Shown one piece after another: positions 14,070 through 38,624 of a DNA stretch of 50,024 bases (within the stretch, counting starts at the first letter, position 1; each line of letters starts with the position of its first letter). This stretch comes from Vampirovibrio sp. (lineage in GTDB: Bacteria > Cyanobacteriota > Vampirovibrionia > Vampirovibrionales > Vampirovibrionaceae), in the NCBI GenBank assembly GCA_019634025.1, contig JAHQWC010000055.1:1-50024 (forward strand), in the 5' to 3' direction. The position numbers and the translations under genes are program-made. Below the pieces are notes generated by a model. The model saw nothing but the letters and a program-made list of their open reading frames with translations, was not told the DNA's origin and searched no databases.

Positions 14070-15047
14070 CTAGTGAATCCGCCTTTGAATAAACCGTGCC
14101 AGATCATTTAAGGCGCTGGTGTCTTCTAAACCAAGTTGATCTAACGTCGCCATAGCTTCCTGCACCAGATCTTCGGCCAGCGTCACTGTTTTAGACACCC
14201 CATAAAAATCGGGATACGTGGCCTTTTTCTGAATCAAATCCTTCCCGGCGGTCTTCCCCAAGGTGTCTGAGGTAGATTGAACATCCAACAGATCATCCAC
14301 AATCTGGAACGCCAGCCCCAAGGTCTTTCCAAAGCGTTGGAACCCCTCCACCACAGCTGCATCCGCCCCGGCCAACCTGACGCCAGCCACGGCAGAAAAA
14401 GTGAAGAGAGCGCCGGTCTTATAGGTGTGAATATATTCCAGCACCGCCTCATCGTACGGCTGGCCTTCATACAAAATATCCACCAACTGCCCGTTCACCA
14501 AACCATGGATTCCAGCCACATCGGAGAGATCGCTCACTAAATCCAACAAGCTCTGGGCGGTCACCTGATCTGACAGCGGCGTGTGTTTGGTCATCAGCCC
14601 AAACGCCATCCCCAACAATGCATCACCTGTCAGCAACGCCGTGGCTTCATCAAACGCTTTATGCAAGGTGGGCTGGCCTCGACGCAAATCATCATTGTCC
14701 ATACAGGGCAAATCATCATGGATCAGGCTAAAAGCATGGATAATCTCTACAGCACAGGCTGTGGGCAAAGCGGTTTCCATGTTTCCCCCACAGGCGCGGC
14801 AGCTTTCCAAAATCAACACCGGCCGCATGCGTTTACCACCCTTCAAGGTGCTATACCGGATGGCTTCCCACAACCGTTCTGTCCCTTTTACAGGGGCTTC
14901 ACCGTGTTTGCGGCTGGATTCTGTTTCCAACAACCGAGCTAAGCCCGCCTGAAAATAAGCCAGGGTTTCAGAGAATCTTGTGTCATAGGGAACAGCCTCT
15001 GCTGTGTGATATCCCTTACTATGTTCTATCATCGGTTGGGCGTTCAT
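14070..15047 (-). CDS. crtE: Geranylgeranyl/farnesyl diphosphate synthase
   Basis: GGKRMRP, SLIHDDLPCMDNDDLRRG, KTGALF, FQIVDDLLD, GKTAGKD; next to DUF212; start uncertain (track gives 15083). Confidence 0.92.
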   Translation of the reverse strand: MNAQPMIEHSKGYHTAEAVPYDTRFSETLAYFQAGLARLLETESSRKHGEAPVKGTERLWEAIRYSTLKGGKRMRPVLILESCRACGGNMETALPTACAVEIIHAFSLIHDDLPCMDNDDLRRGQPTLHKAFDEATALLTGDALLGMAFGLMTKHTPLSDQVTAQSLLDLVSDLSDVAGIHGLVNGQLVDILYEGQPYDEAVLEYIHTYKTGALFTFSAVAGVRLAGADAAVVEGFQRFGKTLGLAFQIVDDLLDVQSTSDTLGKTAGKDLIQKKATYPDFYGVSKTVTLAEDLVQEAMATLDQLGLEDTSALNDLARFIQRRIH

Positions 15048-15054
15048 TGGGGCA

Positions 15055-16185
15055 TTATAGCGAGTCCGGCGGCTCTTCAGCAAGAACCTGGTCCATATCG
15101 GCAGAAACCTGCTGCCTACGGGTACGGCGCGAAGCCTCCCGGTCCTTGCCTTTTAACCGCAAAATCTCTACAGGCGTTTGGCCCCGACGGTGCAGGGTCT
15201 TAGATCCATAATCTTCTTTTTGGCTAGTCTGCTGAACAGTCCGTTTATAACTGCGGGCCTCCTCAATCATCGCCAGGTAGCTTTGGTACCGGCTCTCATC
15301 CAAGGCTTCTATATTTGCCAACACCGCACAACCCGATTCATCGATATGTAAGCAATCTGAAAACTCACAGGCTTCACGGTACGGAGCAAACTCTCGGTAA
15401 GCTGCTTCAATAGCATTAGGCAGAACCGTATCAAACTTTAGCTGGCTAAACCCCGGCGTATCGGCAATCACCGTATCTGTGGCCACTGTTAAAAGCTCTA
15501 CATGACGGGTGGTGTGTTGCCCTCGACCCAGGGCTTCAGACACCGGTTTTATTTTCAGATCTAGCGACGGATTCACGGCATTCAGTAAAGAGGACTTCCC
15601 CGCCCCACTTAACCCAGCCAGCACGGACATTTTGCCCTTAATTTCAGACAGAAGAGGAGCAAAGGATTCCGGTTGGTAAACAGAGGTGTTGAAGACACGG
15701 TAACCTAAATGATCACTGTAGCACTGGTGAATAGGGTTCAATTGCTCAGGAGAAGCCGCCAAGTCAGTTTTGCTAAGGCAAATAACCGGTTCAATTCCGG
15801 CAATGGCAACCTGAGTCAGATACCGGTCCAGCTGCGCACCGTCAAAGTCCGGCTCTTGAAATGGGTGTACAATAACTACCCGGTCTACATTGGCAATTTT
15901 AGGGCGCTCCAGCCGATTTTGCCGGGGCAGTACCGATTGAATCCGGCCGGTGTTGTTTTGCGGATCCAACGCATCCAACGTCACCCGGTCCCCGACCAAT
16001 ACTTCGGTTCGCTCTTTTTTTAAGAGGCCCCGCAAAGAACATTCATAAAGAGGGCACTCATCCAAAACGTCACCCTGTTGATTACCCGCAGCGTCCTTGT
16101 CCAGATCCAGCGCAACGTAGTAAAAATTAGAATGGGATCGCTGAACTCGTCCTTGAGAAGGTGTAGGAATCACGTTCTGATCCAT
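15055..16185 (-). CDS. rsgA: Ribosome small subunit-dependent GTPase A
   Basis: Circularly permuted GTPase: SKTD, GLSGAGKSSLLN, GRGQHTTRH, DTPGF, Zn finger CEFSDCLHIDESGCAV. Confidence 0.95.
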   Translation of the reverse strand: MDQNVIPTPSQGRVQRSHSNFYYVALDLDKDAAGNQQGDVLDECPLYECSLRGLLKKERTEVLVGDRVTLDALDPQNNTGRIQSVLPRQNRLERPKIANVDRVVIVHPFQEPDFDGAQLDRYLTQVAIAGIEPVICLSKTDLAASPEQLNPIHQCYSDHLGYRVFNTSVYQPESFAPLLSEIKGKMSVLAGLSGAGKSSLLNAVNPSLDLKIKPVSEALGRGQHTTRHVELLTVATDTVIADTPGFSQLKFDTVLPNAIEAAYREFAPYREACEFSDCLHIDESGCAVLANIEALDESRYQSYLAMIEEARSYKRTVQQTSQKEDYGSKTLHRRGQTPVEILRLKGKDREASRRTRRQQVSADMDQVLAEEPPDSL

Positions 16186-17169: not shown

Positions 17170-18342
17170 TCAATCAATCTTATCTGGGCGTGGGTATACG
17201 TTTAAAATCTGGTACGTCGTATCCCGTTCTACTGGGGTTTTCCCAGCCTTCCAAATCATGGTCAGCAGATCCTGCTTAGTCATATGCTCGGCGCTTTCGG
17301 TGCCGGCCGCATGGGCAATTTTTTCTTCTACCACCGTTCCGTCCACATCATCCACCCCAAAGTTCAGCCCGACTTGGGACAGTTTCTCACCAATGTGAAT
17401 CCAGAATGCTTTGAGGTGAGGCACGTTATCTAAAATTAATCGGCTCACGGCAAAGTTCTTCAGATTCTCCACACCAGTCTGGGCATGAGCCGGATCAATT
17501 TTATTGCCTTCGTAATAGCAGTTCAGGGGAATAAAGCACATAAACCCACCGGTTAAATCCTGCTGATCCCGAAGGGCCAAGGCATGATCAATCCGCTCCT
17601 GATAAGTTTCTCCCAGGCCAGCAAGTAAGGTGGCATTGCTTTTCAGACCCAATTTGTGGGCTTTTCCGTGGATATCCAGCCACTGTTCTCCGGTAATTTT
17701 GCTGGGGCAAACCTCTTCACGCACTCTTGGCGCAAACACCTCAGCCCCACCACCGGGCAGAGATTGCAGACCGGCATCTTTGAGGGTCAAAATGGTTTCT
17801 TCCACCGTAATGCCCGCCAGTTTTGCAAAATAATCCAGCTCCACTGCCGTCAGCCCTTTAATGTGGACATGGGGAAAGTGCTTTTTCAGGGCTTTAAACA
17901 GATCCACGTAATACTCCAAACCTTGCTCAGGATACAGGCCCGACACAATGTGGAATTCCGACAAGGTGTCCTTGGCAGAATACTGATTCACGTGATCCAC
18001 CACGTCATCCACCGACATGGCATAGGCAAATGGGGATTTCTCTCCTTTTTTGTAGGAGCAAAACTTGCAGTTCAGTTCGCAAATATTGGTGGGGTTAATG
18101 TGGAAGTTATGCACCCAATACACATAATCCCGGTTTTCCACAGGCGTCCTTAAAATTCTGGCGGTATCCGCCAAAATACCCACAGACAATAGATCATCAC
18201 ACTCATACACCTCAATAGCCTCATCCCGGCTAATCCGTTGACCTTCCAACACCTTGGCGTAAATGTGCTTTAACGGGTTTGAGGGGCGCGTAATATACTG
18301 CTCTTTTAACCCATCCAACCGATCTACCACTGTGGCTGCCAT
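17170..18342 (-). CDS. mqnE: Aminofutalosine synthase (CofH/MqnE radical SAM family)
   Basis: CELNCKFC radical SAM motif, SLPGGGAE, HLKAFW..GEKLSQVGLNFGVDDVDGTVVEEKIAHAAG (more MqnE-like than MqnC-like); AGGAGG RBS before ATG 18342. Confidence 0.82.
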   Translation of the reverse strand: MAATVVDRLDGLKEQYITRPSNPLKHIYAKVLEGQRISRDEAIEVYECDDLLSVGILADTARILRTPVENRDYVYWVHNFHINPTNICELNCKFCSYKKGEKSPFAYAMSVDDVVDHVNQYSAKDTLSEFHIVSGLYPEQGLEYYVDLFKALKKHFPHVHIKGLTAVELDYFAKLAGITVEETILTLKDAGLQSLPGGGAEVFAPRVREEVCPSKITGEQWLDIHGKAHKLGLKSNATLLAGLGETYQERIDHALALRDQQDLTGGFMCFIPLNCYYEGNKIDPAHAQTGVENLKNFAVSRLILDNVPHLKAFWIHIGEKLSQVGLNFGVDDVDGTVVEEKIAHAAGTESAEHMTKQDLLTMIWKAGKTPVERDTTYQILNVYPRPDKID

Positions 18343-18471
18343 CGCCGTGCCTCCTACATGTATTATCATTCTCCAGCTATCTGCTTATACTGTCGTACAA
18401 ACAGACCCCGCCAGCAAGAAGGGCCTTTTTATTAGGGGGATATGCACATTTAGATCTCAAAAGTTTTGCCC

Positions 18472-21510: not shown

Positions 21511-21885
21511 CTATTTATTTTTTTGAACCAAATATATCGTACCCAGCAAGGCGGTTCCCAACAACAGTACCGTCAAAGTGGGACCTACTGATATAGCCGA
21601 AGGATTAGCTATATAGATGAGAGCCACTGCTGCAACAATATAAATACCGATAAATCGAGGCACTAAAAACGTCACGGCCAAAGCACCCAAAAAAGCCAAG
21701 ATAATGGCAAGTCCAAATATAGGTAGCTCTACCACACCGCTTAATACTAACGGCAATGACACCATAACCACAAACAAAGACCCAAAGAGGATAACCCCCC
21801 AAAATTCATGGAAAAACCACTTGGCTGTCGCCTCAGGGTCGCGGACGCCTTCTTCTTCACTTTCGTGGTGGGCCATCATCATCAT
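21511..21885 (-). CDS. Hypothetical membrane protein (about 4 TM)
   Basis: Hydrophobic ORF with AAGGAG RBS upstream. Confidence 0.7.
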   Translation of the reverse strand: MMMMAHHESEEEGVRDPEATAKWFFHEFWGVILFGSLFVVMVSLPLVLSGVVELPIFGLAIILAFLGALAVTFLVPRFIGIYIVAAVALIYIANPSAISVGPTLTVLLLGTALLGTIYLVQKNK

Positions 21886-22064
21886 CAGTCGCTCTGAACT
21901 CCTTAGTTAATAGCTGTTACGCCTCAGCTACCATACCAAACGAGGCAATGGTCAGTAACAGTAAAAAATAAATCAGAAAAAACCACAGGTTTTTAAAAAA
22001 CATCTCAACTTCATATTGCTTCTTAACCGGCTTTTGACGAACCATAATCTATCTCCTTCCGGCC

Positions 22065-22514
22065 TTAGCTAGATGCTTCTACAGCTTGACTTGCGGAACC
22101 AGTGGCGGCATCCGACGAATCAATGGTTTTTAAGTATTCCTGAAAATCGCCCACCATTTCCTGCAGCTTCTCGTATTCCAGCACAGATAGCCAATAGGCT
22201 TGAATACGTCGCTGATCGGTACTGGGTTTTATTTTCGGCATCCGGGTGCCCAGCAGGCGTTCCCGCAAAAACTTGTTGCCTTCCCGGTAATGGCAGTCTC
22301 CAATCCGGCAGCCACAGGCAAAGGTCCCGTCTGCACCATTTTTCAAGGCCGTTTCCAGCATAATGGGCTGAATCATCCCACTACAAGGCACCTTGATAAT
22401 CTGAACATTGGGATCATCTTTCAAGCAACCTTTTTCATCCAACTGATCCTTCAGCTCGACGCTCCGTTCACAGACCAGTCCGATGATTTTCTCTTTGTTT
22501 TCTGTTGAAGTCAT
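22065..22514 (-). CDS. MvhD/FlpD-like hydrogenase iron-sulfur subunit
   Basis: IIGLVC, VPCSG, GADG...GC..GDCHYREGN pattern of the MvhD/FlpD [2Fe-2S] family. Confidence 0.88.
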   Translation of the reverse strand: MTSTENKEKIIGLVCERSVELKDQLDEKGCLKDDPNVQIIKVPCSGMIQPIMLETALKNGADGTFACGCRIGDCHYREGNKFLRERLLGTRMPKIKPSTDQRRIQAYWLSVLEYEKLQEMVGDFQEYLKTIDSSDAATGSASQAVEASS

Positions 22515-22549
22515 ATGCTTGTCTTCCTTAAATGCGTCTTGGCTGAAGT

Positions 22550-23674
22550 TTATGAGGACGTCGTCGCCAGCGCGACTTTAATTTCTTCCAATACATCCGC
22601 TGATTCTCGACGGGGAATTTCAATGGCCTTAAAAGCACAGGCGCCTACACATAAACCGCAGTTAGAACACCGTCCGGCATCCACCACGGCTAAACGTTTA
22701 AAGCGAGTGTCATCATCCCGGTCCACCATCTCAATAGCTTCATAAGGGCAGTCATGGTAGCACAGGGAACATCCGGTACAGTTCTCAAACTTCACATGGG
22801 CAAACTGACCGCGCAAGGTCTTTTTATGCAGATAGGGTAGCCACAGCAGGGCGACAATCACACCCAAGGTCAACGCCCATACCCAACCGGCATCCCATCC
22901 TTTTACCGCTAGCCATTGGGGCCACATATACAACAGATCAAAGGAAATGGATTGAGAGAAAGCAGCCCTGTTCGGATCAGCGCCCAACTCTACCGGGAAG
23001 AACCCGCAAATCATAAATAAACCGCCCAGCAACAGCAGGTATAACGGCGCCGGAGCATCGGTGACCGGGCGGGTAATCCGCAGGTAATGCATCCATAAAA
23101 AGAACATCAACAACCCAGGAATCGCCAAGTGCAAAAACAGCAACCGGGTCAGGGTAAAGTCCACCATCTTGCCGCCGGGCATAAAAAACTCGGCCAATCC
23201 GGCCCCCACTAAGGGCAAGGCTCCCAGCAGGTTCACCGTCATGCTGGTCAGGTTCACCGCTTCCTGGTCCCAAATCAACAGGTAGCCGGTTAAACCCACC
23301 AGAAAGGTGATGGTTAACAAAATCACGCCGGTGAGCCACGGAATAATCCGGTATTCTCGATACCGATCCGTAAACCACACGCGCAACATGTGCAGCAACA
23401 CAAAAATCATCATGCCATCCGCTGCATAACGGTGGATACTACGAAATGCGTTTCCAAACGGAATCTGCTCGGTAATATATTTTACCGACGGATACGCCTT
23501 TGTCATGGTGGGCACGTAGTAGGCAAACAGGAGCAAGCCGGAAATAAACAGCGTCCAGATGAAAAAGTTCGGCAAGGCGCCATGGTAATAGAACGGATTG
23601 TATTTTTGAGAAAAGACCTTGTTCAAGCCTTTCTCAATCCACAGGGTAAAGGTTTGTAGCCGTTCCGTATACAT
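22550..23674 (-). CDS. Cytochrome b fused to a C-terminal 2x[4Fe-4S] ferredoxin domain
   Basis: Four heme His (H81, H95, H182, H196), GLTGYLLIWDQ; CTGCSLCYHDCP and CSNCGLCVGACA. Confidence 0.9.
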   Translation of the reverse strand: MYTERLQTFTLWIEKGLNKVFSQKYNPFYYHGALPNFFIWTLFISGLLLFAYYVPTMTKAYPSVKYITEQIPFGNAFRSIHRYAADGMMIFVLLHMLRVWFTDRYREYRIIPWLTGVILLTITFLVGLTGYLLIWDQEAVNLTSMTVNLLGALPLVGAGLAEFFMPGGKMVDFTLTRLLFLHLAIPGLLMFFLWMHYLRITRPVTDAPAPLYLLLLGGLFMICGFFPVELGADPNRAAFSQSISFDLLYMWPQWLAVKGWDAGWVWALTLGVIVALLWLPYLHKKTLRGQFAHVKFENCTGCSLCYHDCPYEAIEMVDRDDDTRFKRLAVVDAGRCSNCGLCVGACAFKAIEIPRRESADVLEEIKVALATTSS

Positions 23675-23706: not shown

Positions 23707-24321
23707 TTACGATTTTTTCTGCCGGTCTGGCGCACGAGTCGCCAGCTCTTCTTCATGCCCCAGACTGATATAGGCAATGGCTGTCACCACAAAGATCAGA
23801 CCAATTCCCAAAAAGTAAGGCTTCAGCCCGGTAGAGATCATTTGCCGAACCGCTTCGGCATTATTCATCTGCTCAAGGGTCAGGTTAATGTTCCCTTCAC
23901 CACAGATCATCACCAGCATACCAAATAAGCCGGAGGCGAACACCAGGATTAACAGGACAACTTCTTTCATGGCAGATCCTTTTGCGGCAGATTCTAAGCG
24001 GGAAACCTCAACCTTAGTGGTCTTCCCCTCAACATCGCCATTCAGTTTCCGGTAAAGCGCCTCAAAGGGACCAAACTCCCGCTGAATCTTCCCTTTAATC
24101 TTCTCTTTAACATACCCGTCAAACATCAACACCAAAAACGTCACTGCTAAAAAGGCAATGGCACCTAACAAAGCCAACCCGTTCATATCTGTTGGCGTCA
24201 CGGTAAACGTTTTAAACGTCTGAAAGAAAAGCGACAGACCATAGGTAGAGAGTCCAAAGACCACCCACCATAAAAGGCTGTTCATGCCAGAGAAAGATTT
24301 TTTGTCCATCATACTCTTCAT
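23707..24321 (-). CDS. Hypothetical 4-TM protein inside the respiratory operon
   Basis: Two pairs of TM segments; 4-nt overlap with the upstream cytochrome b. Confidence 0.75.
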   Translation of the reverse strand: MKSMMDKKSFSGMNSLLWWVVFGLSTYGLSLFFQTFKTFTVTPTDMNGLALLGAIAFLAVTFLVLMFDGYVKEKIKGKIQREFGPFEALYRKLNGDVEGKTTKVEVSRLESAAKGSAMKEVVLLILVFASGLFGMLVMICGEGNINLTLEQMNNAEAVRQMISTGLKPYFLGIGLIFVVTAIAYISLGHEEELATRAPDRQKKS

Positions 24322-25778
24322 GCGCCAGCCTCCGCCATTTCCTGACGGGTTTTGCGCCGAGAGTCAACCATAATTAAGATTTCAGCAAGCACTACCTGAC
24401 CAATAGAGAAGGCCGCCCACAGCATACTCCAATATAGGTTCGCCGGGTTCCAACCTTCTGGCAGAGCACCACCACTAAAGCTATTAAACCAAACCATAAG
24501 CCAGTCTGCTGCAAAGACATGCCAGAAAAAGAGGTACCAAACCCCAAACAAGGCACAACCATACACCCAGGCACGTAGTGGAAGCTGCTGCTGGTATTGG
24601 CCCCAATGCCAGAACTGACCAATCCCCATAAAGAGGATCATATGGCCAAACCAAAACGGCGGATCTGTCTCAATATTGGATTTATTCATCACAATCATGG
24701 CCGAGAACACCAAAAACTCAACGGCGGCGGCAATCCCCACCATGGTAAAAATAGGCCGTTTCCACATGTTCCGCTCTTCGCCCCAATCCAGAAAAGCCAA
24801 ACCAATGGTAATTACCGGAATCCCTACGGTCCAAATTGTAGCCCAATAGGGATCCATATACCGAAGCATCTGATACAACGCCAGGAAGTACCAATCCGAC
24901 AGAATCGGCAACGGTGTCACCTCAGGGTTTGCCCGAGACCCTGTCTCCGCCGGAATCATAATGGCGGTAATCAATACCATGCCCAACATAATCAAAATGG
25001 CAGGCATCCGCAGGTTCAACCGCTTAAACCGGTTTTTGTAGAAGTACAATTCCGTCACTACCAGCAGGATCAGCGAAATCGTAAAGTGCAACGAATAAAA
25101 CCGGGTCATCGTCGCCTGCCCAATAGAGCTGCCCCCCAGTAAAATCTGAGAGGTGGTCATCCCCTGGTGGGTATAATCGCCAATCATTTTTGTTACCGCG
25201 CCAATGGCGTTGGGTAAAAACCAGGTGTTTTCCACCACAATACCTTCCCACGGCCAGTACCAGTATTTCGGGGTAATATCCAGGTACATCGGGAAGGTGG
25301 CAAAAATCTTGGTGGCCCAAAATGCCCGCTGGTTCCAGATCAACAGATAGCCCGTTAACCCGGAGTACATCGCTGCAAGTAGCAGAATAATAGACAATAC
25401 AAAGGTAAACTCACCTTTGTTCTTGTATTCGGCGTTAAAGTACATCCGATACACCCTTAACGTGGCGGCAATAATCATGCCGTCCCCCGCATATTTATGC
25501 AACCCTCTGAGGATCATTCCCAGTTTGTTTTCTGAAAAGCTGATAATGGAGTCAAAAGCTTGAGAGGTAGTCGGCAAATAAATGGCTACCAGAATCACAC
25601 CGCTGATAATGACCACCATCCAATACAGATAGTAAATACCCCCTAATTGGTACCAGGGAGACTCTTTTTGCAGGTCTGCCTTGGTCTCGTCAAAAAAATC
25701 AATCTTCGCCAACCGGTCCTGGACAAATTTCCAGCCGTCGGCAGGCGCTTGCTTTAATTGAGAAATGACACCTGCCAT
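24318..25778 (-). CDS. Cytochrome b (b6 plus subunit IV-like, unsplit) lacking the bH ligands
   Basis: RGLHKY, GLTGYLLIWNQRAFWA, TRFYSLH, ANPEVTPLPILSDWYF (PEWY equivalent). Confidence 0.9.
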   Translation of the reverse strand: MAGVISQLKQAPADGWKFVQDRLAKIDFFDETKADLQKESPWYQLGGIYYLYWMVVIISGVILVAIYLPTTSQAFDSIISFSENKLGMILRGLHKYAGDGMIIAATLRVYRMYFNAEYKNKGEFTFVLSIILLLAAMYSGLTGYLLIWNQRAFWATKIFATFPMYLDITPKYWYWPWEGIVVENTWFLPNAIGAVTKMIGDYTHQGMTTSQILLGGSSIGQATMTRFYSLHFTISLILLVVTELYFYKNRFKRLNLRMPAILIMLGMVLITAIMIPAETGSRANPEVTPLPILSDWYFLALYQMLRYMDPYWATIWTVGIPVITIGLAFLDWGEERNMWKRPIFTMVGIAAAVEFLVFSAMIVMNKSNIETDPPFWFGHMILFMGIGQFWHWGQYQQQLPLRAWVYGCALFGVWYLFFWHVFAADWLMVWFNSFSGGALPEGWNPANLYWSMLWAAFSIGQVVLAEILIMVDSRRKTRQEMAEAGA

Positions 25779-26444
25779 CTAGGAAATCCCTCCTGCCTCA
25801 ACTTTGGTCACCACCAGCTTATTTGCAGCGGTGTCCACATCCATTTCAAAAATCCGAGGTGGCCGTGGCGCAGGGCCACTAACAACAGCGCCACGAATGT
25901 CACCGAGATCCGTTCCGGTTGCGCCTTCCTGCAGAGGATCAAACACACTGAAGTGGCACGGACATGCAAACAGCGGGTTTTTGGCTAACGGATAGTTATA
26001 ATCCACCGCTTTCGCCGGATCCGTTAAAAAGTTGAACACACAGCCCATGTGTGGACAAATGCGACTCACAGCATGAAAGACTTTTTCGCCACCCTCATCT
26101 GGCAGCCGAACCACGAACCCTGGAATATTAATAGCTTGGAAGCCTTTAAACGTATACTCTCTGCTTTTCTGGCCAAAGGTAAACGTTTGGTAAGACCACG
26201 GTGTCGGAAAATCATCCAGCGAGAACACAATGTCCCGTTCCCGAACCGGTAAATCCGGATTACTAAAGAGGCCACCGCCCCCTTTCCATTCTAAAGGACT
26301 GCCTTTAAAGCTAAATTTGGTCAACGTCTCGCCAATAGGCCCGGCACTGGGCCGCAGATAGCGTACCAGCGGAGAGATAAACAGGCCAATGGCGCCCAAC
26401 AACGGCAGGCCAAACAATATTTTCAAAAACGCTCGGCGATCCAT
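25779..26444 (-). CDS. Rieske [2Fe-2S] subunit of a cytochrome bc-type complex
   Basis: Tat-like RRAFLK anchor; CPHMGC and CPCHFS boxes; GPAPRP. Confidence 0.93.
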   Translation of the reverse strand: MDRRAFLKILFGLPLLGAIGLFISPLVRYLRPSAGPIGETLTKFSFKGSPLEWKGGGGLFSNPDLPVRERDIVFSLDDFPTPWSYQTFTFGQKSREYTFKGFQAINIPGFVVRLPDEGGEKVFHAVSRICPHMGCVFNFLTDPAKAVDYNYPLAKNPLFACPCHFSVFDPLQEGATGTDLGDIRGAVVSGPAPRPPRIFEMDVDTAANKLVVTKVEAGGIS

Positions 26445-26447
26445 GGC

Positions 26448-27551
26448 TTAGTGTCCTCCCTCGCTGACTTCTTCAGAAGGTGCAGCTGGTTTTGGAGCCG
26501 CACCAGCGTTCCGAGGTGTTACCGGCGGAATCAAAGGATGTACGCCTTCAGGCCTGGGCAATGCCACTCCGGCAGGGATTTCATCATCCGGCGACAAGTC
26601 GTTGTTGTAGGATAACGACCGTACATGCCGAATCAACATCCAGATCATTTTATCGTCATATTTAAAGTTTTTCTGCTTATCTTCATTTCCCAGCCATGCC
26701 GGCATGCCAGAAGGGTAAATCCCTTCACTCACATATTTGAATAACTGGGCATCCGTCCGGTTATACATCCGGGCATAATGATCCTTCAGGTTCGCTGGCG
26801 GCGGCTTAAAGATACCTCCGTGAACTTTAATAGACTCTGCGCCTTCATGTTTAGGCATACCCGTATGCAACGGGCCATCCGCAAAACCACGTTTTCCATG
26901 GCACACGGCACAGTTCTGACCAAACACTGCCGCCACATCTACAGGTTCACCAGCCAAATTGTCATACTTCATATCCCCGTTACCGGCTAAGTGACGTGCA
27001 TAAAAAGCTGCTTCCCACCGCTGGTCTCGGGTCAATTTATCCCGTAAAGGACCAGCAGGGTGAACCTGCGCCAACAGATCCAAACGGCCATTCTTTTCAG
27101 AAACAACCATCTCTTCCGGTTTTTTACCCGTGGTCAAAAACAGATACACATCAATCGGCGTGGTATAGGCCAATACTTTTTGCTTATCTTGCTGCTGCCA
27201 GTAGCCAGCAGCGTGACAGGAAAGACAGTTATTCTCATAGACACTCTTCCCATTCGTCAAAGACGGTGGGGCAGACGGAAAGGCAAAATCTTCTTCAGAA
27301 ATCCGCTCATCAAACACCGGCTCGGACAGAAGACTCGTATTGTCTTTAATTTCTTCTTTAGCACAACCCGTCACTGTTAGTGCAACAGCAGCAGATAACA
27401 ACCCTAATGAAAAAACGCGTCTGGCCGACTTCAAAACAGACAAAACGCCGGAAAAACGAGAGAATCCCTTTTCCTCAATATTTGCGTTTGTTTTGTTGTT
27501 GGCGTCCATATCCATAGAAATCATTGTCCCTGTTGAATCATTAGTAACCAT
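26448..27551 (-). CDS. Diheme cytochrome c, probable lipoprotein
   Basis: CLSCH and CAVCH heme motifs, GMPAW distal Met, lipobox-like VTGC; start uncertain. Confidence 0.88.
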   Translation of the reverse strand: MVTNDSTGTMISMDMDANNKTNANIEEKGFSRFSGVLSVLKSARRVFSLGLLSAAVALTVTGCAKEEIKDNTSLLSEPVFDERISEEDFAFPSAPPSLTNGKSVYENNCLSCHAAGYWQQQDKQKVLAYTTPIDVYLFLTTGKKPEEMVVSEKNGRLDLLAQVHPAGPLRDKLTRDQRWEAAFYARHLAGNGDMKYDNLAGEPVDVAAVFGQNCAVCHGKRGFADGPLHTGMPKHEGAESIKVHGGIFKPPPANLKDHYARMYNRTDAQLFKYVSEGIYPSGMPAWLGNEDKQKNFKYDDKMIWMLIRHVRSLSYNNDLSPDDEIPAGVALPRPEGVHPLIPPVTPRNAGAAPKPAAPSEEVSEGGH

Positions 27552-27756: not shown

Positions 27757-27927
27757 CTAGTCTTCATCCTTTAGCATTGCATACTTTGCCTGTTCCAAGT
27801 TCTCCAACCGGCCCGTGCCGGACGCCCAAAACAGAGCGATTACCGCCATCAGAAAAAACAATCCGCAGATAAAGAAGGCGGCAATGTAGCCGGGACCAAT
27901 TCCACCAGAAAGACAACTCGGGCACAT
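27757..27927 (-). CDS. ccoS: cbb3-type oxidase assembly protein CcoS/FixS (not in ORF track)
   Basis: Manual translation MCPSCLSGGIGPGYIAAFFICGLFFLMAVIALFWASGTGRLENLEQAKYAMLKDED*; ATG overlaps the ccoO stop (TAATG). Confidence 0.78.
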   Translation of the reverse strand: MCPSCLSGGIGPGYIAAFFICGLFFLMAVIALFWASGTGRLENLEQAKYAMLKDED

Positions 27928-28895
27928 TAGTGAGGTCGTCCTCCGCCGTATTGATACGCGCCATGATCGGCGCCCAGGTTTTCAATATATTTGTAGTTAT
28001 CATCCAGCTTATTGGGATCATCCAATTGGCTAAATTCCGTCACCTCTACCTCACCGGCAGCAGCGCTACCGTCGTTTGGCAAGGTTTTCAAGAAAGCGAC
28101 CAGATACAACATATCTTCATCGCTCAACGATTTTTTCCACCGGGGCATGCGAGTCCCAGCCACACCTTCAGCAACCCGCCAATACCACATATCGTTGGAA
28201 TAGGCGGCATAGTAAGGCCGGGTAAAATTGGCCGGTTTTTTCGCCATGGTAGCGCTTACAGGACCATTACCTTTGCCCTGCACCCCGTGGCACACAGCAC
28301 AATTTTGCATATAGATCCCGCGACCCGCATTGGCGGCGGCAGAAGAATCCACATCCACCAATTCACTAATCACGTGATATTTATCGCGATATTCTTGCGG
28401 CCCGTTAATCCAGTGCGGTTGTTTCCGTTTTGCACCCAGAGTTTGCAGATAGGCAATCAAGTCACTCATATCATCATGACTCAGATAACTAAAGGAGGGC
28501 ATAATGGATCCCGGCTTCACGGCGCGAGGGTTCACATGGTGCGCCCAATGCCAAGAATCGGGGTACTTACCACCGATGTTAGACAAATCCGGACCCGTCC
28601 GCTCCGTGCCTAAAACGTGAGGCGTTTCATGTACATAATCCCCAGCAGCCACCATCTCGCCGGTTTCACGATCTTGATACCGGACAAACTGGGTGTGGCA
28701 GTAAAAGCAACCTTCCCGCCGATAAACATTCCGCCCCCGCAACACGGCAGGATCTTCCTGCTCGTAGTTGGTAGCCACCTCACTGGCTTCGGGCTGAAAC
28801 TTCAGGTAGGGCAAGTACACCGTCACCACAATAATGGTTACAAATACCAGGGCGATATAGGCGCCGGCCACTAAATAATTAAGTCGTTTTTCCAT
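27927..28895 (-). CDS. ccoO: cbb3-type cytochrome c oxidase subunit II with an extra heme c domain
   Basis: GRNVYRREGCFYCHTQFVR, GTERTGPDL, PGSIMP; second CAVCH domain. Confidence 0.92.
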   Translation of the reverse strand: MEKRLNYLVAGAYIALVFVTIIVVTVYLPYLKFQPEASEVATNYEQEDPAVLRGRNVYRREGCFYCHTQFVRYQDRETGEMVAAGDYVHETPHVLGTERTGPDLSNIGGKYPDSWHWAHHVNPRAVKPGSIMPSFSYLSHDDMSDLIAYLQTLGAKRKQPHWINGPQEYRDKYHVISELVDVDSSAAANAGRGIYMQNCAVCHGVQGKGNGPVSATMAKKPANFTRPYYAAYSNDMWYWRVAEGVAGTRMPRWKKSLSDEDMLYLVAFLKTLPNDGSAAAGEVEVTEFSQLDDPNKLDDNYKYIENLGADHGAYQYGGGRPH

Positions 28896-28927: not shown

Positions 28928-30325
28928 CTATACGTAAGCCATCCCGGTGGGGGAAGCTGGGATCGGTTCATAATTTTTGGAGAATACCGTTTTGTAGATG
29001 TTGAACATAAACAAGATTTGACCCAGGACAATCATCACACCGGATAAAAACCGAACAAACATGTAAGGCTCTAATTCCATGCCCCACTGATCCACCGGCA
29101 AGGCAAAGTGCCATCCGGCAGCCTGTACCAGCCCGGCAATGGTCAAGGCCAGCATCATGATGATCCATCCCAAGAAACTCAGCCAGAAGTGCCACACCGC
29201 CAGCTGCTTACTAAAGACCTTGCGTCCGGTGACCTTGGGAATAATGTAGTAAACCGCCGCAAAAACAATAAAGGAGAACGTCGCCAACAACGCCATGTGC
29301 GCGTGCCCCACCACCCAGTTACTGAAGTGAATATACCAGTTGATTCCCCGCGTTGCCTGAAACGGACCCTGAATACAGGTGAGCAAATACCCCAGCCCTG
29401 AGGCCATGACAAAGCGAAGCGGCACATGATCGGCCGCCAAAGACCATTTACCCTTCATGGTCATAAAAAAGTTGGTCAATACGGTAAACACCGGCACCAA
29501 CAAAAACACACTAGAAATAACCGCGATGGCTTTCAACCATTCCGGCACGGGTGATTGCAAAATATGGTGCGTTCCGGTCGGCGCATAAAACATTCCAATG
29601 GTCCAAAATCCAATCATAGACAAGGTATGACTGTACAACGGATTTCCAGTAAATCGAGGGATCAGGTAGTACAGAATCCCAACGCCACCCACGGTAAACC
29701 ACATACCCAAAATATTGTGACCATAAAACCAACCGGCAATGGCATCATTCAACCCGTCAAACTGCACAAACGCCCGGTTCCCAACCACATACACAATAGG
29801 AAACCAAAATAACGCGCCCAAAATGTACCACAGGGTCACGTACCATTTTTTCTCAGGGCCGGACAACACGGTTTTATAAACGTTAATCCCAGTCAAAATT
29901 AACCCGGCTAACACCATCCAGTCAAAAATGCCTTGTAGCTCTGCGTACTCTCTGGCTTCGGTGTAACCATTCATAATAGAGAGCGCGCCCAGACCCACCA
30001 GCAGGTTCCACACCACCATGGTCACATTGCCTAAGCGTTCAGACCAAAGCCGCTTACTACCGGACAGCACTGTTCCCAAAAAGAACATACAGCCCACATA
30101 ACCCATGGACAGCCAACCAATAAGAACCCCATGAGTATGGACCGGCCGTAACCGGCCAAAGGATAACTGCGGCACTTCATGGATCAAATCCGGCCAGGTC
30201 ATTAACGCGCCGGCGGTTAGACCAATCGTGGTTCCAAACACCAACCAGAAAATCGCAGAAATTAAAAAGTTCCGACTCGCACTAAATGGCTCGTCACTAA
30301 AAACAGCGTTCAAAAATCTATTCAT
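28928..30325 (-). CDS. ccoN: cbb3-type (C-family) heme-copper oxidase subunit I
   Basis: SFGRLRPVHT, REYAE, WFYGHN, GTHH, WVVGHAH. Confidence 0.93.
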   Translation of the reverse strand: MNRFLNAVFSDEPFSASRNFLISAIFWLVFGTTIGLTAGALMTWPDLIHEVPQLSFGRLRPVHTHGVLIGWLSMGYVGCMFFLGTVLSGSKRLWSERLGNVTMVVWNLLVGLGALSIMNGYTEAREYAELQGIFDWMVLAGLILTGINVYKTVLSGPEKKWYVTLWYILGALFWFPIVYVVGNRAFVQFDGLNDAIAGWFYGHNILGMWFTVGGVGILYYLIPRFTGNPLYSHTLSMIGFWTIGMFYAPTGTHHILQSPVPEWLKAIAVISSVFLLVPVFTVLTNFFMTMKGKWSLAADHVPLRFVMASGLGYLLTCIQGPFQATRGINWYIHFSNWVVGHAHMALLATFSFIVFAAVYYIIPKVTGRKVFSKQLAVWHFWLSFLGWIIMMLALTIAGLVQAAGWHFALPVDQWGMELEPYMFVRFLSGVMIVLGQILFMFNIYKTVFSKNYEPIPASPTGMAYV

Positions 30326-37553: not shown

Positions 37554-38624
37554 TTACGGAATATAAGATTCCAACTCATCCCGAACGAACTTCGGCAAAT
37601 TTTCAAGCTTTAACAAATCCCGGATGGCCTCTTCACCGCCCAACCGAAACACAGCATCCACCGCCGCCAAAGCAACATCATCCGCCGTATCAAAAACGGA
37701 TTCCCGCACATAGGGCAAGCACTCTTCTTCACCAGATTGTGCCAACGCATGCACTGCCGTTAATCGAATAGACGGCGCTTCATCCGAAAGTGCAGCAATT
37801 AAACTATCCGTAGCCTTGCGGCTCCCGGCACTGCCAATGCGGCCAATGGCTTCAATAATGTATTCCTTAAACACGTTAAATTTATCCCGAATCCCCCGCT
37901 TAGATTCCAAGGCGTCAATCAACGGCTCCAACGCTCGAATATCCCCTAACATGCCCAGAGCTTTGGCAGCAGATTCTTTTATATAAAGTGATTTTTCCCA
38001 CTCATCGTTTAACAGATTCACCAGCGGCGCTACAGCATGGTCGTCTCCCAGTTGGCCCAAACTTTCCGTGGCGGCCAGGCGCAGCCGGTAATTTTCAGAT
38101 TTGTCATTCAACAACGTCATCAAGGGCTCCATCGCCCGGTTATCTCCAATGCGGCCCAAGGAACGAACCGCTGATATTCGAAGCCTTAACACCTCATCAG
38201 AACTCGGAGGCTCAATATTAGAAGCATCAGAACCAGAAGAATCTACACCCTCAAAAAATCGAACCTCGTTGGTCTTCCCTTTTGAAGGGATGGCAATGTC
38301 CAAAATCTGAGGAACAGCTCCGTACGCCCGAATTCGTCCCAATACCCCCACACAGTGGCCCAACACTTTAGGGTGAGTCTCATTCTTCAAGCATTCACTT
38401 AAACAGTGTATCCAACGTAAGTTCATTTCACCGTCAGACGCCTCTTGAATAAAATCACCCAGCCGACTAATGGCATGAATTTTGGCATCCACCACTTCCT
38501 GCGTGTCAGTCGTCAACGCAATACACGCCATTAATTCTTCAGGGCTATGAGACTGTTCAACCATATGAAGTGGGGTTGAGAGAGTGTCTGACTTTTGAAG
38601 TGACATGCTCGTCGTACCTCTCAC
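37554..38624 (-). CDS. HEAT-repeat (PBS lyase-like) protein
   Basis: Repeated R..A..ALG.IGD.RA..PL units. Confidence 0.88.
   Translation of the reverse strand: MRGTTSMSLQKSDTLSTPLHMVEQSHSPEELMACIALTTDTQEVVDAKIHAISRLGDFIQEASDGEMNLRWIHCLSECLKNETHPKVLGHCVGVLGRIRAYGAVPQILDIAIPSKGKTNEVRFFEGVDSSGSDASNIEPPSSDEVLRLRISAVRSLGRIGDNRAMEPLMTLLNDKSENYRLRLAATESLGQLGDDHAVAPLVNLLNDEWEKSLYIKESAAKALGMLGDIRALEPLIDALESKRGIRDKFNVFKEYIIEAIGRIGSAGSRKATDSLIAALSDEAPSIRLTAVHALAQSGEEECLPYVRESVFDTADDVALAAVDAVFRLGGEEAIRDLLKLENLPKFVRDELESYIP

Follow-up and report, generated by a model that had tools for sequence, protein, structure and literature searches.

What a protein of the MvhD/FlpD family is doing in an operon for the reduction of oxygen is the question raised by a 50,024-nucleotide stretch of DNA from Vampirovibrio sp. 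(assembly GCA_019634025.1, contig JAHQWC010000055.1; the whole stretch is hereafter called the window). The initial annotation of the window placed an MvhD/FlpD-like protein and a ferredoxin domain at 22065..22800 and saw in them a cytoplasmic electron port linking the bc complex to ferredoxin, NAD(P)H or H2 metabolism. We find that both modules are what they were claimed to be (PF02662 at an E-value of 1.1e-24 for the one, 4Fe-4S dicluster families for the other), the span being made up of the gene for the FlpD/MvhD-family protein (FlpD in the following) and the ferredoxin domain of its neighbor, which starts near residue 290 (~nt 22807). The ferredoxin domain had also been described as sitting on cytochrome b in an O2-reducing operon; the operon is indeed of this kind, but the carrier is a second cytochrome b and not the one on the Rieske side. 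The main oddity of the locus, as read from alignments, is the loss of the haem bH ligands from the Rieske-side cytochrome b.

As in bc1 and b6f complexes, the operon combines a Rieske protein and a c-type cytochrome with a cytochrome b that carries a Qo-type motif, and helices A and D form the predicted dimer interface; the Rieske [2Fe-2S] subunit (PF00355) and the c-type cytochrome (cytochrome c families) are encoded beside cytochrome b. It differs from them in having two unlike cytochromes b in place of a homodimer, one of them without both haem bH ligands. In a gapless alignment to cytochrome b6, the 486-residue Rieske-side protein retains His94 in helix B and His231 in helix D, the haem bL ligands, and has Arg108 at the position of the second helix-B histidine and Tyr245/Phe246 at that of the second helix-D histidine. 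It thereby keeps two of the four haem ligands, whereas the cytochrome b that is fused to the ferredoxin domain keeps all four (His81, His95, His182 and His196). Arginine or lysine occupies the second helix-B position in all 19 sequences of the order Vampirovibrionales that cover helix B, and the helix-D histidine is found in none. The bH ligands are likewise missing in 4/4 operons from four other families of the class Vampirovibrionia, and among 20 partner proteins from metagenomes the helix-B position is arginine in 19/19 and the helix-D histidine is absent from 19/20, the partner at locus L077 being the one that has it. The Qo-type stretch PILSDWYF, with SDWY as a variant of the PEWY motif, is invariant in the relatives compared. 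In the alignment to cytochrome b6, the haem ci cysteine of b6f is absent from both cytochromes b. The 486-residue protein is predicted to bind haem bL only.

The second cytochrome b is a 374-residue protein whose cytochrome b part aligns with helices A–D of cytochrome b6 and whose C-terminal part is the ferredoxin domain. An AlphaFold2 model of this fusion (mean pLDDT 83, pTM 0.77) has six transmembrane helices (residues 34–52, 74–102, 110–134, 172–198, 209–225 and 262–282) followed by a ferredoxin fold; the helix count is taken from the cytochrome b6 alignment and the model, hydropathy alone having missed helix B and counted a surface helix. The best Foldseek matches of the model are bc1 cytochromes b, over ~290 columns at a TM of ~0.6. 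Compared with the cytochrome b of bc1 and b6f, the fusion has no helices G and H, iron-sulfur modules form its C-terminal end, and its PEWY position reads FDLLY. In all of 29 sequences, with identities as low as 35%, the eight ferredoxin cysteines (Cys299, 302, 305, 309, 336, 339, 342 and 346) and the four haem histidines are unchanged. In solved cytochrome b complexes the chain is found on the n-side of the membrane after helix F, and the ferredoxin domain, which follows the six helices A–F, is therefore predicted to lie on the n-side, in the cytoplasm. The same is predicted for FlpD, in which a hydropathy scan finds no hydrophobic segment, and the cytoplasmic placement of the initial annotation thus agrees with the topology prediction.

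By its profile and structure matches, FlpD is a true MvhD-family protein. It matches PF02662 with 87.2 bits (cut-off 22.3) over profile positions 1–122 of 123, and the solved MvhD chain 5odc_D with an E-value of 6e-19. Its Cys15, Cys44, Cys69 and Cys74 align with Cys13, Cys42, Cys67 and Cys72 of MvhD and are invariant in 24/24 aligned sequences, two fused forms included, and Asp73 aligns with MvhD Asp71; Cys30 and Cys67 are not conserved across the aligned sequences. Ser18 stands in place of MvhD Cys16 and Arg70 in place of MvhD His68, the former being, in the available text of PMC13580544, an ‘additional’ conserved cysteine of MvhD between the cluster and the HdrA flavin. FlpD is a separate open reading frame (ORF) with a 35-nt gap to the fusion gene, and a Shine-Dalgarno-like AAGGAAG precedes its ATG. 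Read one after the other, the ferredoxin domain and FlpD are colinear with the C-terminal stretch of the HdrA2 model NF040770 (positions 571–642 at 39 bits and 645–774 at 76 bits, of 777). The flavin part of this model has no match in the ferredoxin/FlpD proteins, whose scores are far below its cut-off of 1100.

Complex prediction for the 486-residue cytochrome b and the fusion gave a score of 0.62, the best control scoring 0.00. A mark of 0.62 is reached by 116/157 solved complexes and by 2/215 mismatched pairs, a calibration that is only rough for predictions made, as here, from custom alignments. The prediction runs have at least 95% of their contacts in common, the partner pLDDT is at least 76, and the predicted interface is formed by helices A and D of both chains (residues 61–73 and 221–247 of chain 1, 43–63 and 172–197 of chain 2). 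A helix A/D interface beside the bL haems is what we take to be that of the bc1 and b6f dimers. On balance we consider it probable that the two cytochromes b form a heterodimer. We are clearly more confident that the iron-sulfur arm, that is, the ferredoxin domain and FlpD, is cytoplasmic and belongs to this complex.

The components of this putative complex are inherited together. The nearest relatives of the fusion, at 60–71% identity, are in Vampirovibrionales genomes, including that of Vampirovibrio chlorellavorus, and FlpD follows the fusion in all 21 loci of the order (L001–L021), 18 of which show the whole operon from CcoN on and one of which is cut by a contig start. Among 49 genomes of the order, 30 have FlpD, and exactly these 30 also have the fusion; the one-haem cytochrome b is encoded in all of them and in a 31st genome, where its gene lies at a contig edge. 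At least 19 of the 30 FlpD-bearing genomes have no other cytochrome b homolog, and in these the pair must therefore serve the cytochrome-c-dependent cbb3 oxidase. Across the class, the fusion is present in 142 of 301 sampled genomes, always in single copy, with one family at 0/123 and another at 77/83. We also fetched 80 metagenome loci with distant short forms of the fusion and read their neighbors within the stretch fetched. FlpD is split from the fusion in 30 of these loci, 20 of which have an adjacent one-haem cytochrome b (18 of the 20 together with a Rieske protein) and 10 of which show neither in the stretch fetched; it is fused in 48 loci, none of which has a Rieske protein or a one-haem cytochrome b, and it was not seen in two. 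Topology, conserved cysteines, fusions and co-inheritance together uphold the electron port of the initial annotation as predicted anatomy of a bc complex.

The genome to which the window belongs (G000; 2.48 Mb in 161 contigs, 78.7% complete) has a second, canonical Rieske/cytochrome b pair on contig C88 (locus L056, 1841–6025), whose cytochrome b carries a PEWY motif and all four histidines. The neighbors of the pair are a 372-residue membrane protein without a family and a 480-residue protein, one part of which resembles cytochrome bd subunit I and which has a C-terminal cytochrome c. Those genomes of the order that lack FlpD have no cytochrome b other than one of the L056 type. A further cytochrome b match, on contig C24 of genome G045 (1569–2126), has 8 in-frame TGA codons and is probably foreign DNA in the assembly, for example organellar DNA with another genetic code.

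To judge by its modules and their order, the gene pair of the window is a split, divergent branch of a known family of cytochrome b–ferredoxin–MvhD fusions. Cytochrome b, ferredoxin and FlpD form a single ORF at loci L023 (Nitrospinaceae) and L024 (Rhodospirillales), with which the window's fusion shares 33–34% identity over nearly its full length (E-values of 2e-61 and 8e-61), the four haem histidines and the eight cluster cysteines. A search of 1.84 billion representatives returned 295 relatives at E ≤ 1e-30, with matches that span residues ~10–370. In the best 150 of these 295, the FlpD profile marks 116 as fused to FlpD (87 of at least 600 residues and 29 of 450–600 residues), the forms without FlpD being 22 short ones like the protein of the window and 12 longer ones; Pfam confirmed the profile classes in 10/10 spot checks. 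Kao and Hunte (2014) reported such fusions in Magnetospirillum and Turneriella as a ‘PDWF-FeS clade’, to which the searchable text of PMC4122944 gives one sentence and no function. The clade has the same three modules in the same order as the window's pair. The differences are that FlpD is a separate gene here, that the motif is FDLLY here and PDWF or DWFY there, and that the partners here are a Rieske protein, a one-haem cytochrome b and a cbb3 oxidase, whereas those of the fused forms are COX1, COX2 and SCO1.

The gene order at both L023 and L024 is COX2-COX1-SCO1-fusion-X (COX1 of L024 being assumed from gene order). Protein X (L023, 7717–8244; L024, 6802–7368), of 175–188 residues, belongs to no Pfam family and has a single N-terminal helix and two conserved cysteines. 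Its gene comes after the fused genes, and X is itself fused to the C-terminus of the forms of at least 600 residues, at least 60 of the 87 extensions matching X; in these long forms the X domain would be periplasmic. One polypeptide, P0187, joins SCO1/SenC, cytochrome b and ferredoxin, a tie to the copper chaperone.

The ten genes of the window's operon are all on the minus strand and form one operon, after which comes the gene for ribosomal protein S16. Their coordinates are collected below.

Table 1. Genes and domains of the cbb3 oxidase operon, in the order of transcription; positions are those of the window.
Feature	Position	Strand	Basis
CcoN, cbb3 oxidase catalytic subunit	28928-30325	-	COX1 E 1e-78; TIGR00780 ccoN E 2e-75, under the model cut-off
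CcoO fused to a cytochrome c domain	27927-28895	-	FixO E 5.5e-33, Cytochrom_C, NF011054
Dihaem cytochrome c, membrane-anchored	26448-27551	-	cytochrome c families; 2 CxxCH motifs in the translation
Rieske iron-sulfur protein	25779-26444	-	PF00355; CPHMGC and CPCH motifs; twin-arginine N-terminus RRAFLK
486-aa cytochrome b with Qo-type motif, predicted haem bL only	24318-25778	-	PF00033, PF00032
204-aa membrane protein between the two cytochromes b	23707-24321	-	4 hydrophobic segments
374-aa cytochrome b-ferredoxin fusion	22550-23674	-	PF00033 E 2e-30 (residues 20-200); Fer4_7 E 1.5e-9 (residues 298-350)
Two-haem cytochrome b body of the fusion, helices A-F	22808-23674	-	PF00033
C-terminal 2x[4Fe-4S] domain of the fusion, residues ~290-374	22550-22807	-	Fer4 families
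FlpD/MvhD-family protein, 149 aa, predicted [2Fe-2S], soluble	22065-22514	-	Pfam PF02662
42-aa single-helix ORF directly 3' of FlpD, possible small subunit	21917-22045	-	translation
124-aa membrane protein, operon end	21511-21885	-	tblastn relatives

The 204-residue membrane protein has no family match in Pfam or NCBIfam, and 17 of the 21 loci of the order have a tblastn relative in the corresponding position, the exceptions being L004, L005, L008 and L009. In both genomes in which the operon is split, its gene follows that of the 486-residue cytochrome b on the oxidase contig. Relatives of the 124-residue protein lie downstream of FlpD in 15/21 loci (tblastn), and at L004 this protein accompanies the cytochrome b–ferredoxin/FlpD pair outside the operon (profile E-value 9e-32). 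Homology of the 204- and 124-residue proteins to protein X of the fused operons was considered and rejected, at E-values above 1 and with neither among the matches listed, all of which are to X of L023. The sequence GGAAGGAG lies upstream of the 42-residue ORF. An 85-residue ORF in another frame (27764–28021, minus strand) overlaps the 3' end of the CcoO gene; tblastn finds weak matches to it in the corresponding position at 10/21 loci (E-values of 1e-5 to 9e-9), and it could be a chance frame or encode a small subunit of the oxidase. Elsewhere in the window, a 356-residue protein (37554–38624, minus strand) resembles CpcE, a phycocyanobilin lyase, and NblB in weak matches of the HEAT-repeat type; the lineage itself is non-photosynthetic.

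The initial annotation had found no hdr or hydrogenase genes near FlpD, and this holds for the window and beyond it. None of the 35 other ORFs of the window is a hydrogenase or Hdr subunit by NCBIfam at E ≤ 1e-15 (13 of the 35 have no match). In the 78.7%-complete genome, in which FlpD is single-copy, there is no match to NiFe hydrogenase (PF00374), FeFe hydrogenase (PF02906) or the CCG/HdrB domain, and the matches of the HdrA2 model are confined to generic fragments and the pieces from ferredoxin and FlpD. FlpD differs from MvhD of the methanogen Mvh–Hdr complex in that the genome has no HdrA, HdrB or hydrogenase match and in that its neighbor is a membrane cytochrome b. Five of the 49 genomes of the order have NiFe matches, solely over the first 67–75 model positions and with FlpD in three of the five, and one genome, which is FlpD-less, has an FeFe match. 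Hydrogenase thus shows no correlation with FlpD in the order: 27 of the 30 FlpD-bearing genomes have no NiFe match and none of the 30 has an FeFe match, and the proposed link to H2 finds no support.

Other redox partners were sought near the arm. Pfam and NCBIfam find no flavin or NAD(P) module in the operon, and a conserved cytoplasmic partner gene beside FlpD was considered and rejected, the ORF clusters downstream of FlpD at 31 split metagenome loci including no redox partner. The commonest of these clusters is a polyprenyl synthase (10/31), and the others are annotated as RadC, MreB, MreC or a histidine kinase or have no family. In the window itself, MqnE of the futalosine route to menaquinone (17170–18369, minus strand) and a polyprenyl diphosphate synthase (14070–15083, minus strand) are encoded a few kb from the operon; given MqnE, the quinone is probably menaquinone. 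The genome encodes NuoD and two POR_N enzymes of the 2-oxoacid:ferredoxin oxidoreductase type. NuoF is found in one of the 49 genomes of the order, and the text available of PMC6349859 describes Melainabacteria complex I without NuoEFG.

These observations suggest the following model. The fused cytochrome b would pair with the 486-residue cytochrome b as a pseudo-heterodimer, in the manner of the cytochromes b of bc1 and b6f. Because the 486-residue protein has no bH ligands, the low-potential electron of menaquinol would have to cross from its haem bL to haems bL and bH of the partner, and the n-side chemistry of complex III would fall to the partner alone, at the place where the iron-sulfur arm ends. 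The partner would hold a wire that runs from haem bL to haem bH, two [4Fe-4S] clusters and a [2Fe-2S] cluster and so reaches into the cytoplasm. We propose that the arm is the complex's electron port for a soluble carrier in the cytoplasm and that it most likely serves for input, electrons of reduced ferredoxin-type donors passing through FlpD, the two [4Fe-4S] clusters and haem bH to menaquinone at the n-side. A route from ferredoxin to b6f has been proposed for cyclic electron flow in cyanobacteria, and the present arrangement would be its built-in equivalent. Input is favored in part because 2-oxoacid:ferredoxin oxidoreductase genes and NDH-1 are present and NuoF is nearly absent from the order. 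We give this explanation as a whole (heterodimer, cytoplasmic arm and electron input) an even chance, and input as the main direction of flow is a tentative choice at somewhat below that.

The arm could instead be an outlet for quinone-based bifurcation, as the initial annotation allowed. Bifurcation of menaquinol at the Qo site would send one electron to the Rieske protein, cytochrome c and cbb3 and the other through the b haems and the arm to a low-potential carrier of the cytoplasm, ferredoxin or NAD(P)+, which NDH-1 could re-oxidize in an extended Q cycle. The one-haem cytochrome b fits this in that it would push the low-potential electron onto the arm-bearing partner, and the module is always found with a high-potential haem-copper oxidase able to provide the pull. 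Similar bifurcation ideas exist for the Rieske/cytochrome b complexes of anammox bacteria. A quinol:NAD+ oxidoreductase has also been proposed for the cytochrome b–FeS(–FAD–NADH) proteins of the Ferrigenium straubiae eNOR operons, in the part available of bioRxiv 10.64898/2026.01.22.701106 (section 6.5.2). As described there, these operons resemble the present loci in that sco1 and the gene for an enzyme of the haem-copper family neighbor that of a cytochrome b bearing an iron-sulfur domain, in an order like that of L023 and L024, and differ from them in having no Rieske protein and no one-haem cytochrome b. Energetically, however, bifurcation of menaquinol to ferredoxin or NAD+ looks strained: with menaquinone and a move against the membrane potential, a textbook estimate puts the electron at about −200 mV on the cytoplasmic side, well above −400 mV and too high for either acceptor, and this is a second reason for favoring input. 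A third is the direction in which MvhD works, since in the solved systems it brings electrons into HdrA rather than withdrawing them (PMC13580544 and PMC5861303, in the portions available). The lack of a flavin or NAD(P) domain in the proteins and of a conserved partner gene nearby also speaks against an outlet, which we regard as unlikely.

The wire might serve the oxidase itself by carrying electrons out of the cytoplasm to a periplasmic acceptor on which its assembly or electron supply depends, such as Cu(II), a SCO1-type copper chaperone (at its thiols) or the site at which electrons enter the oxidase. The gene order of L023 and L024 and the SCO1 fusion P0187 point this way, as do the 87 long forms, with their further helix and putative periplasmic X-homologous domain, and the fused metagenome loci, 40/48 of which have SCO1 and/or a COX1-type gene (both in 22, SCO1 only in 17, COX1 only in one). 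CcoG, which acts as a cupric reductase in the assembly of cbb3, is a membrane protein of the [4Fe-4S] type, and its defining domains, as we understand it, are the FixG-type ferredoxin and C-terminal domains. No FixG/CcoG-specific Pfam family is found in the fusion at E ≤ 0.01, however, and the Vampirovibrionia operons examined have neither SCO1 nor an X domain beside the pair. A service role would also leave unexplained both the loss of bH in the Rieske-side cytochrome b and the occurrence of the split form only with that protein, and we give it a slim chance. That the arm is an evolutionary leftover of a fused ancestor, now a structural subunit without electron transfer, would suit the lack of an evident partner or catalytic domain and of the equivalent of MvhD Cys16 in FlpD, but is scarcely credible given the invariant ferredoxin cysteines and haem histidines of the fusion (29 sequences) and the invariant cysteines of FlpD (24/24) and the single-copy retention of the fusion in 142/301 genomes, which argue for selection on the cofactor sites. 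The ranking that we favor is therefore electron input first, bifurcation output second, service to oxidase or copper third and a relic last.

Several points weigh against electron input into a heterodimer. Cytochrome b homodimers have already been solved, and the heterodimer score therefore shows likeness, not proof. The fusion/FlpD pair at L004 and L005 lies away from the oxidase operon, which in these genomes is on another contig and ends after the 204-residue protein, with one copy of each cytochrome b. The genome of the window has a canonical Rieske/cytochrome b pair, so that here the complex with two cytochromes b would not be the sole route. The 31 split metagenome loci have no conserved cytoplasmic partner gene downstream of FlpD. 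NDH-1 could oxidize ferredoxin with conservation of energy, which makes a second entry less obviously useful. The direction of flow rests on textbook midpoint potentials, and the n-side quinone site on the second cytochrome b is hypothetical; that these proteins assemble, bind clusters and transfer electrons is something we infer from sequence.

The setting of this module is known. The Melainabacteria complex III–IV operon is reportedly also the subject of a 2017 paper by Soo et al. The ‘complex III–IV’ operon of aerobic Melainabacteria, as described in the text available of Matheus Carnevali et al. (2019; PMC6349859) and Soo et al. (2015; PMC4451040), is from the same lineage and is the same cbb3-type oxidase operon with petB/petC-like genes. 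In the text searched, the words FlpD, MvhD and 4Fe-4S do not occur in PMC6349859, the words hydrogenase and ferredoxin do not occur in PMC4451040, and neither describes a second cytochrome b or missing haem ligands. For the missing haem ligands, the second cytochrome b and the split FlpD in Melainabacteria we found no description in the openly searchable literature, a body that does not cover subscription papers.

A symmetric dimer of two-haem cytochromes b is the textbook form of complex III, and in a whole class of the closest non-photosynthetic relatives of cyanobacteria it appears to be asymmetric. At its boldest, the model would make this an obligate heterodimeric complex III of aerobic Melainabacteria, in which one cytochrome b does nothing but oxidize menaquinol and the other serves only the inner side, the quinone reduction of the Q cycle being joined or replaced by a wire to soluble ferredoxin, and it may be a surviving relative of an ancestral ferredoxin–b6f link, the one behind cyclic electron flow in the sister lineage in which oxygenic photosynthesis arose; we hold this version to be distinctly improbable. 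If it were true, complex III would be a direct point of coupling between respiration and the ferredoxin pool. An active wire would be a new junction at which soluble carriers of low potential meet the b haems and the quinone pool. The pair of cytochromes b would then offer a natural system for the study of electron transfer between two bL haems and would bear on the contact of ferredoxin with cytochrome b6f, and a large uncharacterized family, with its 295 representative clusters, gains a context.

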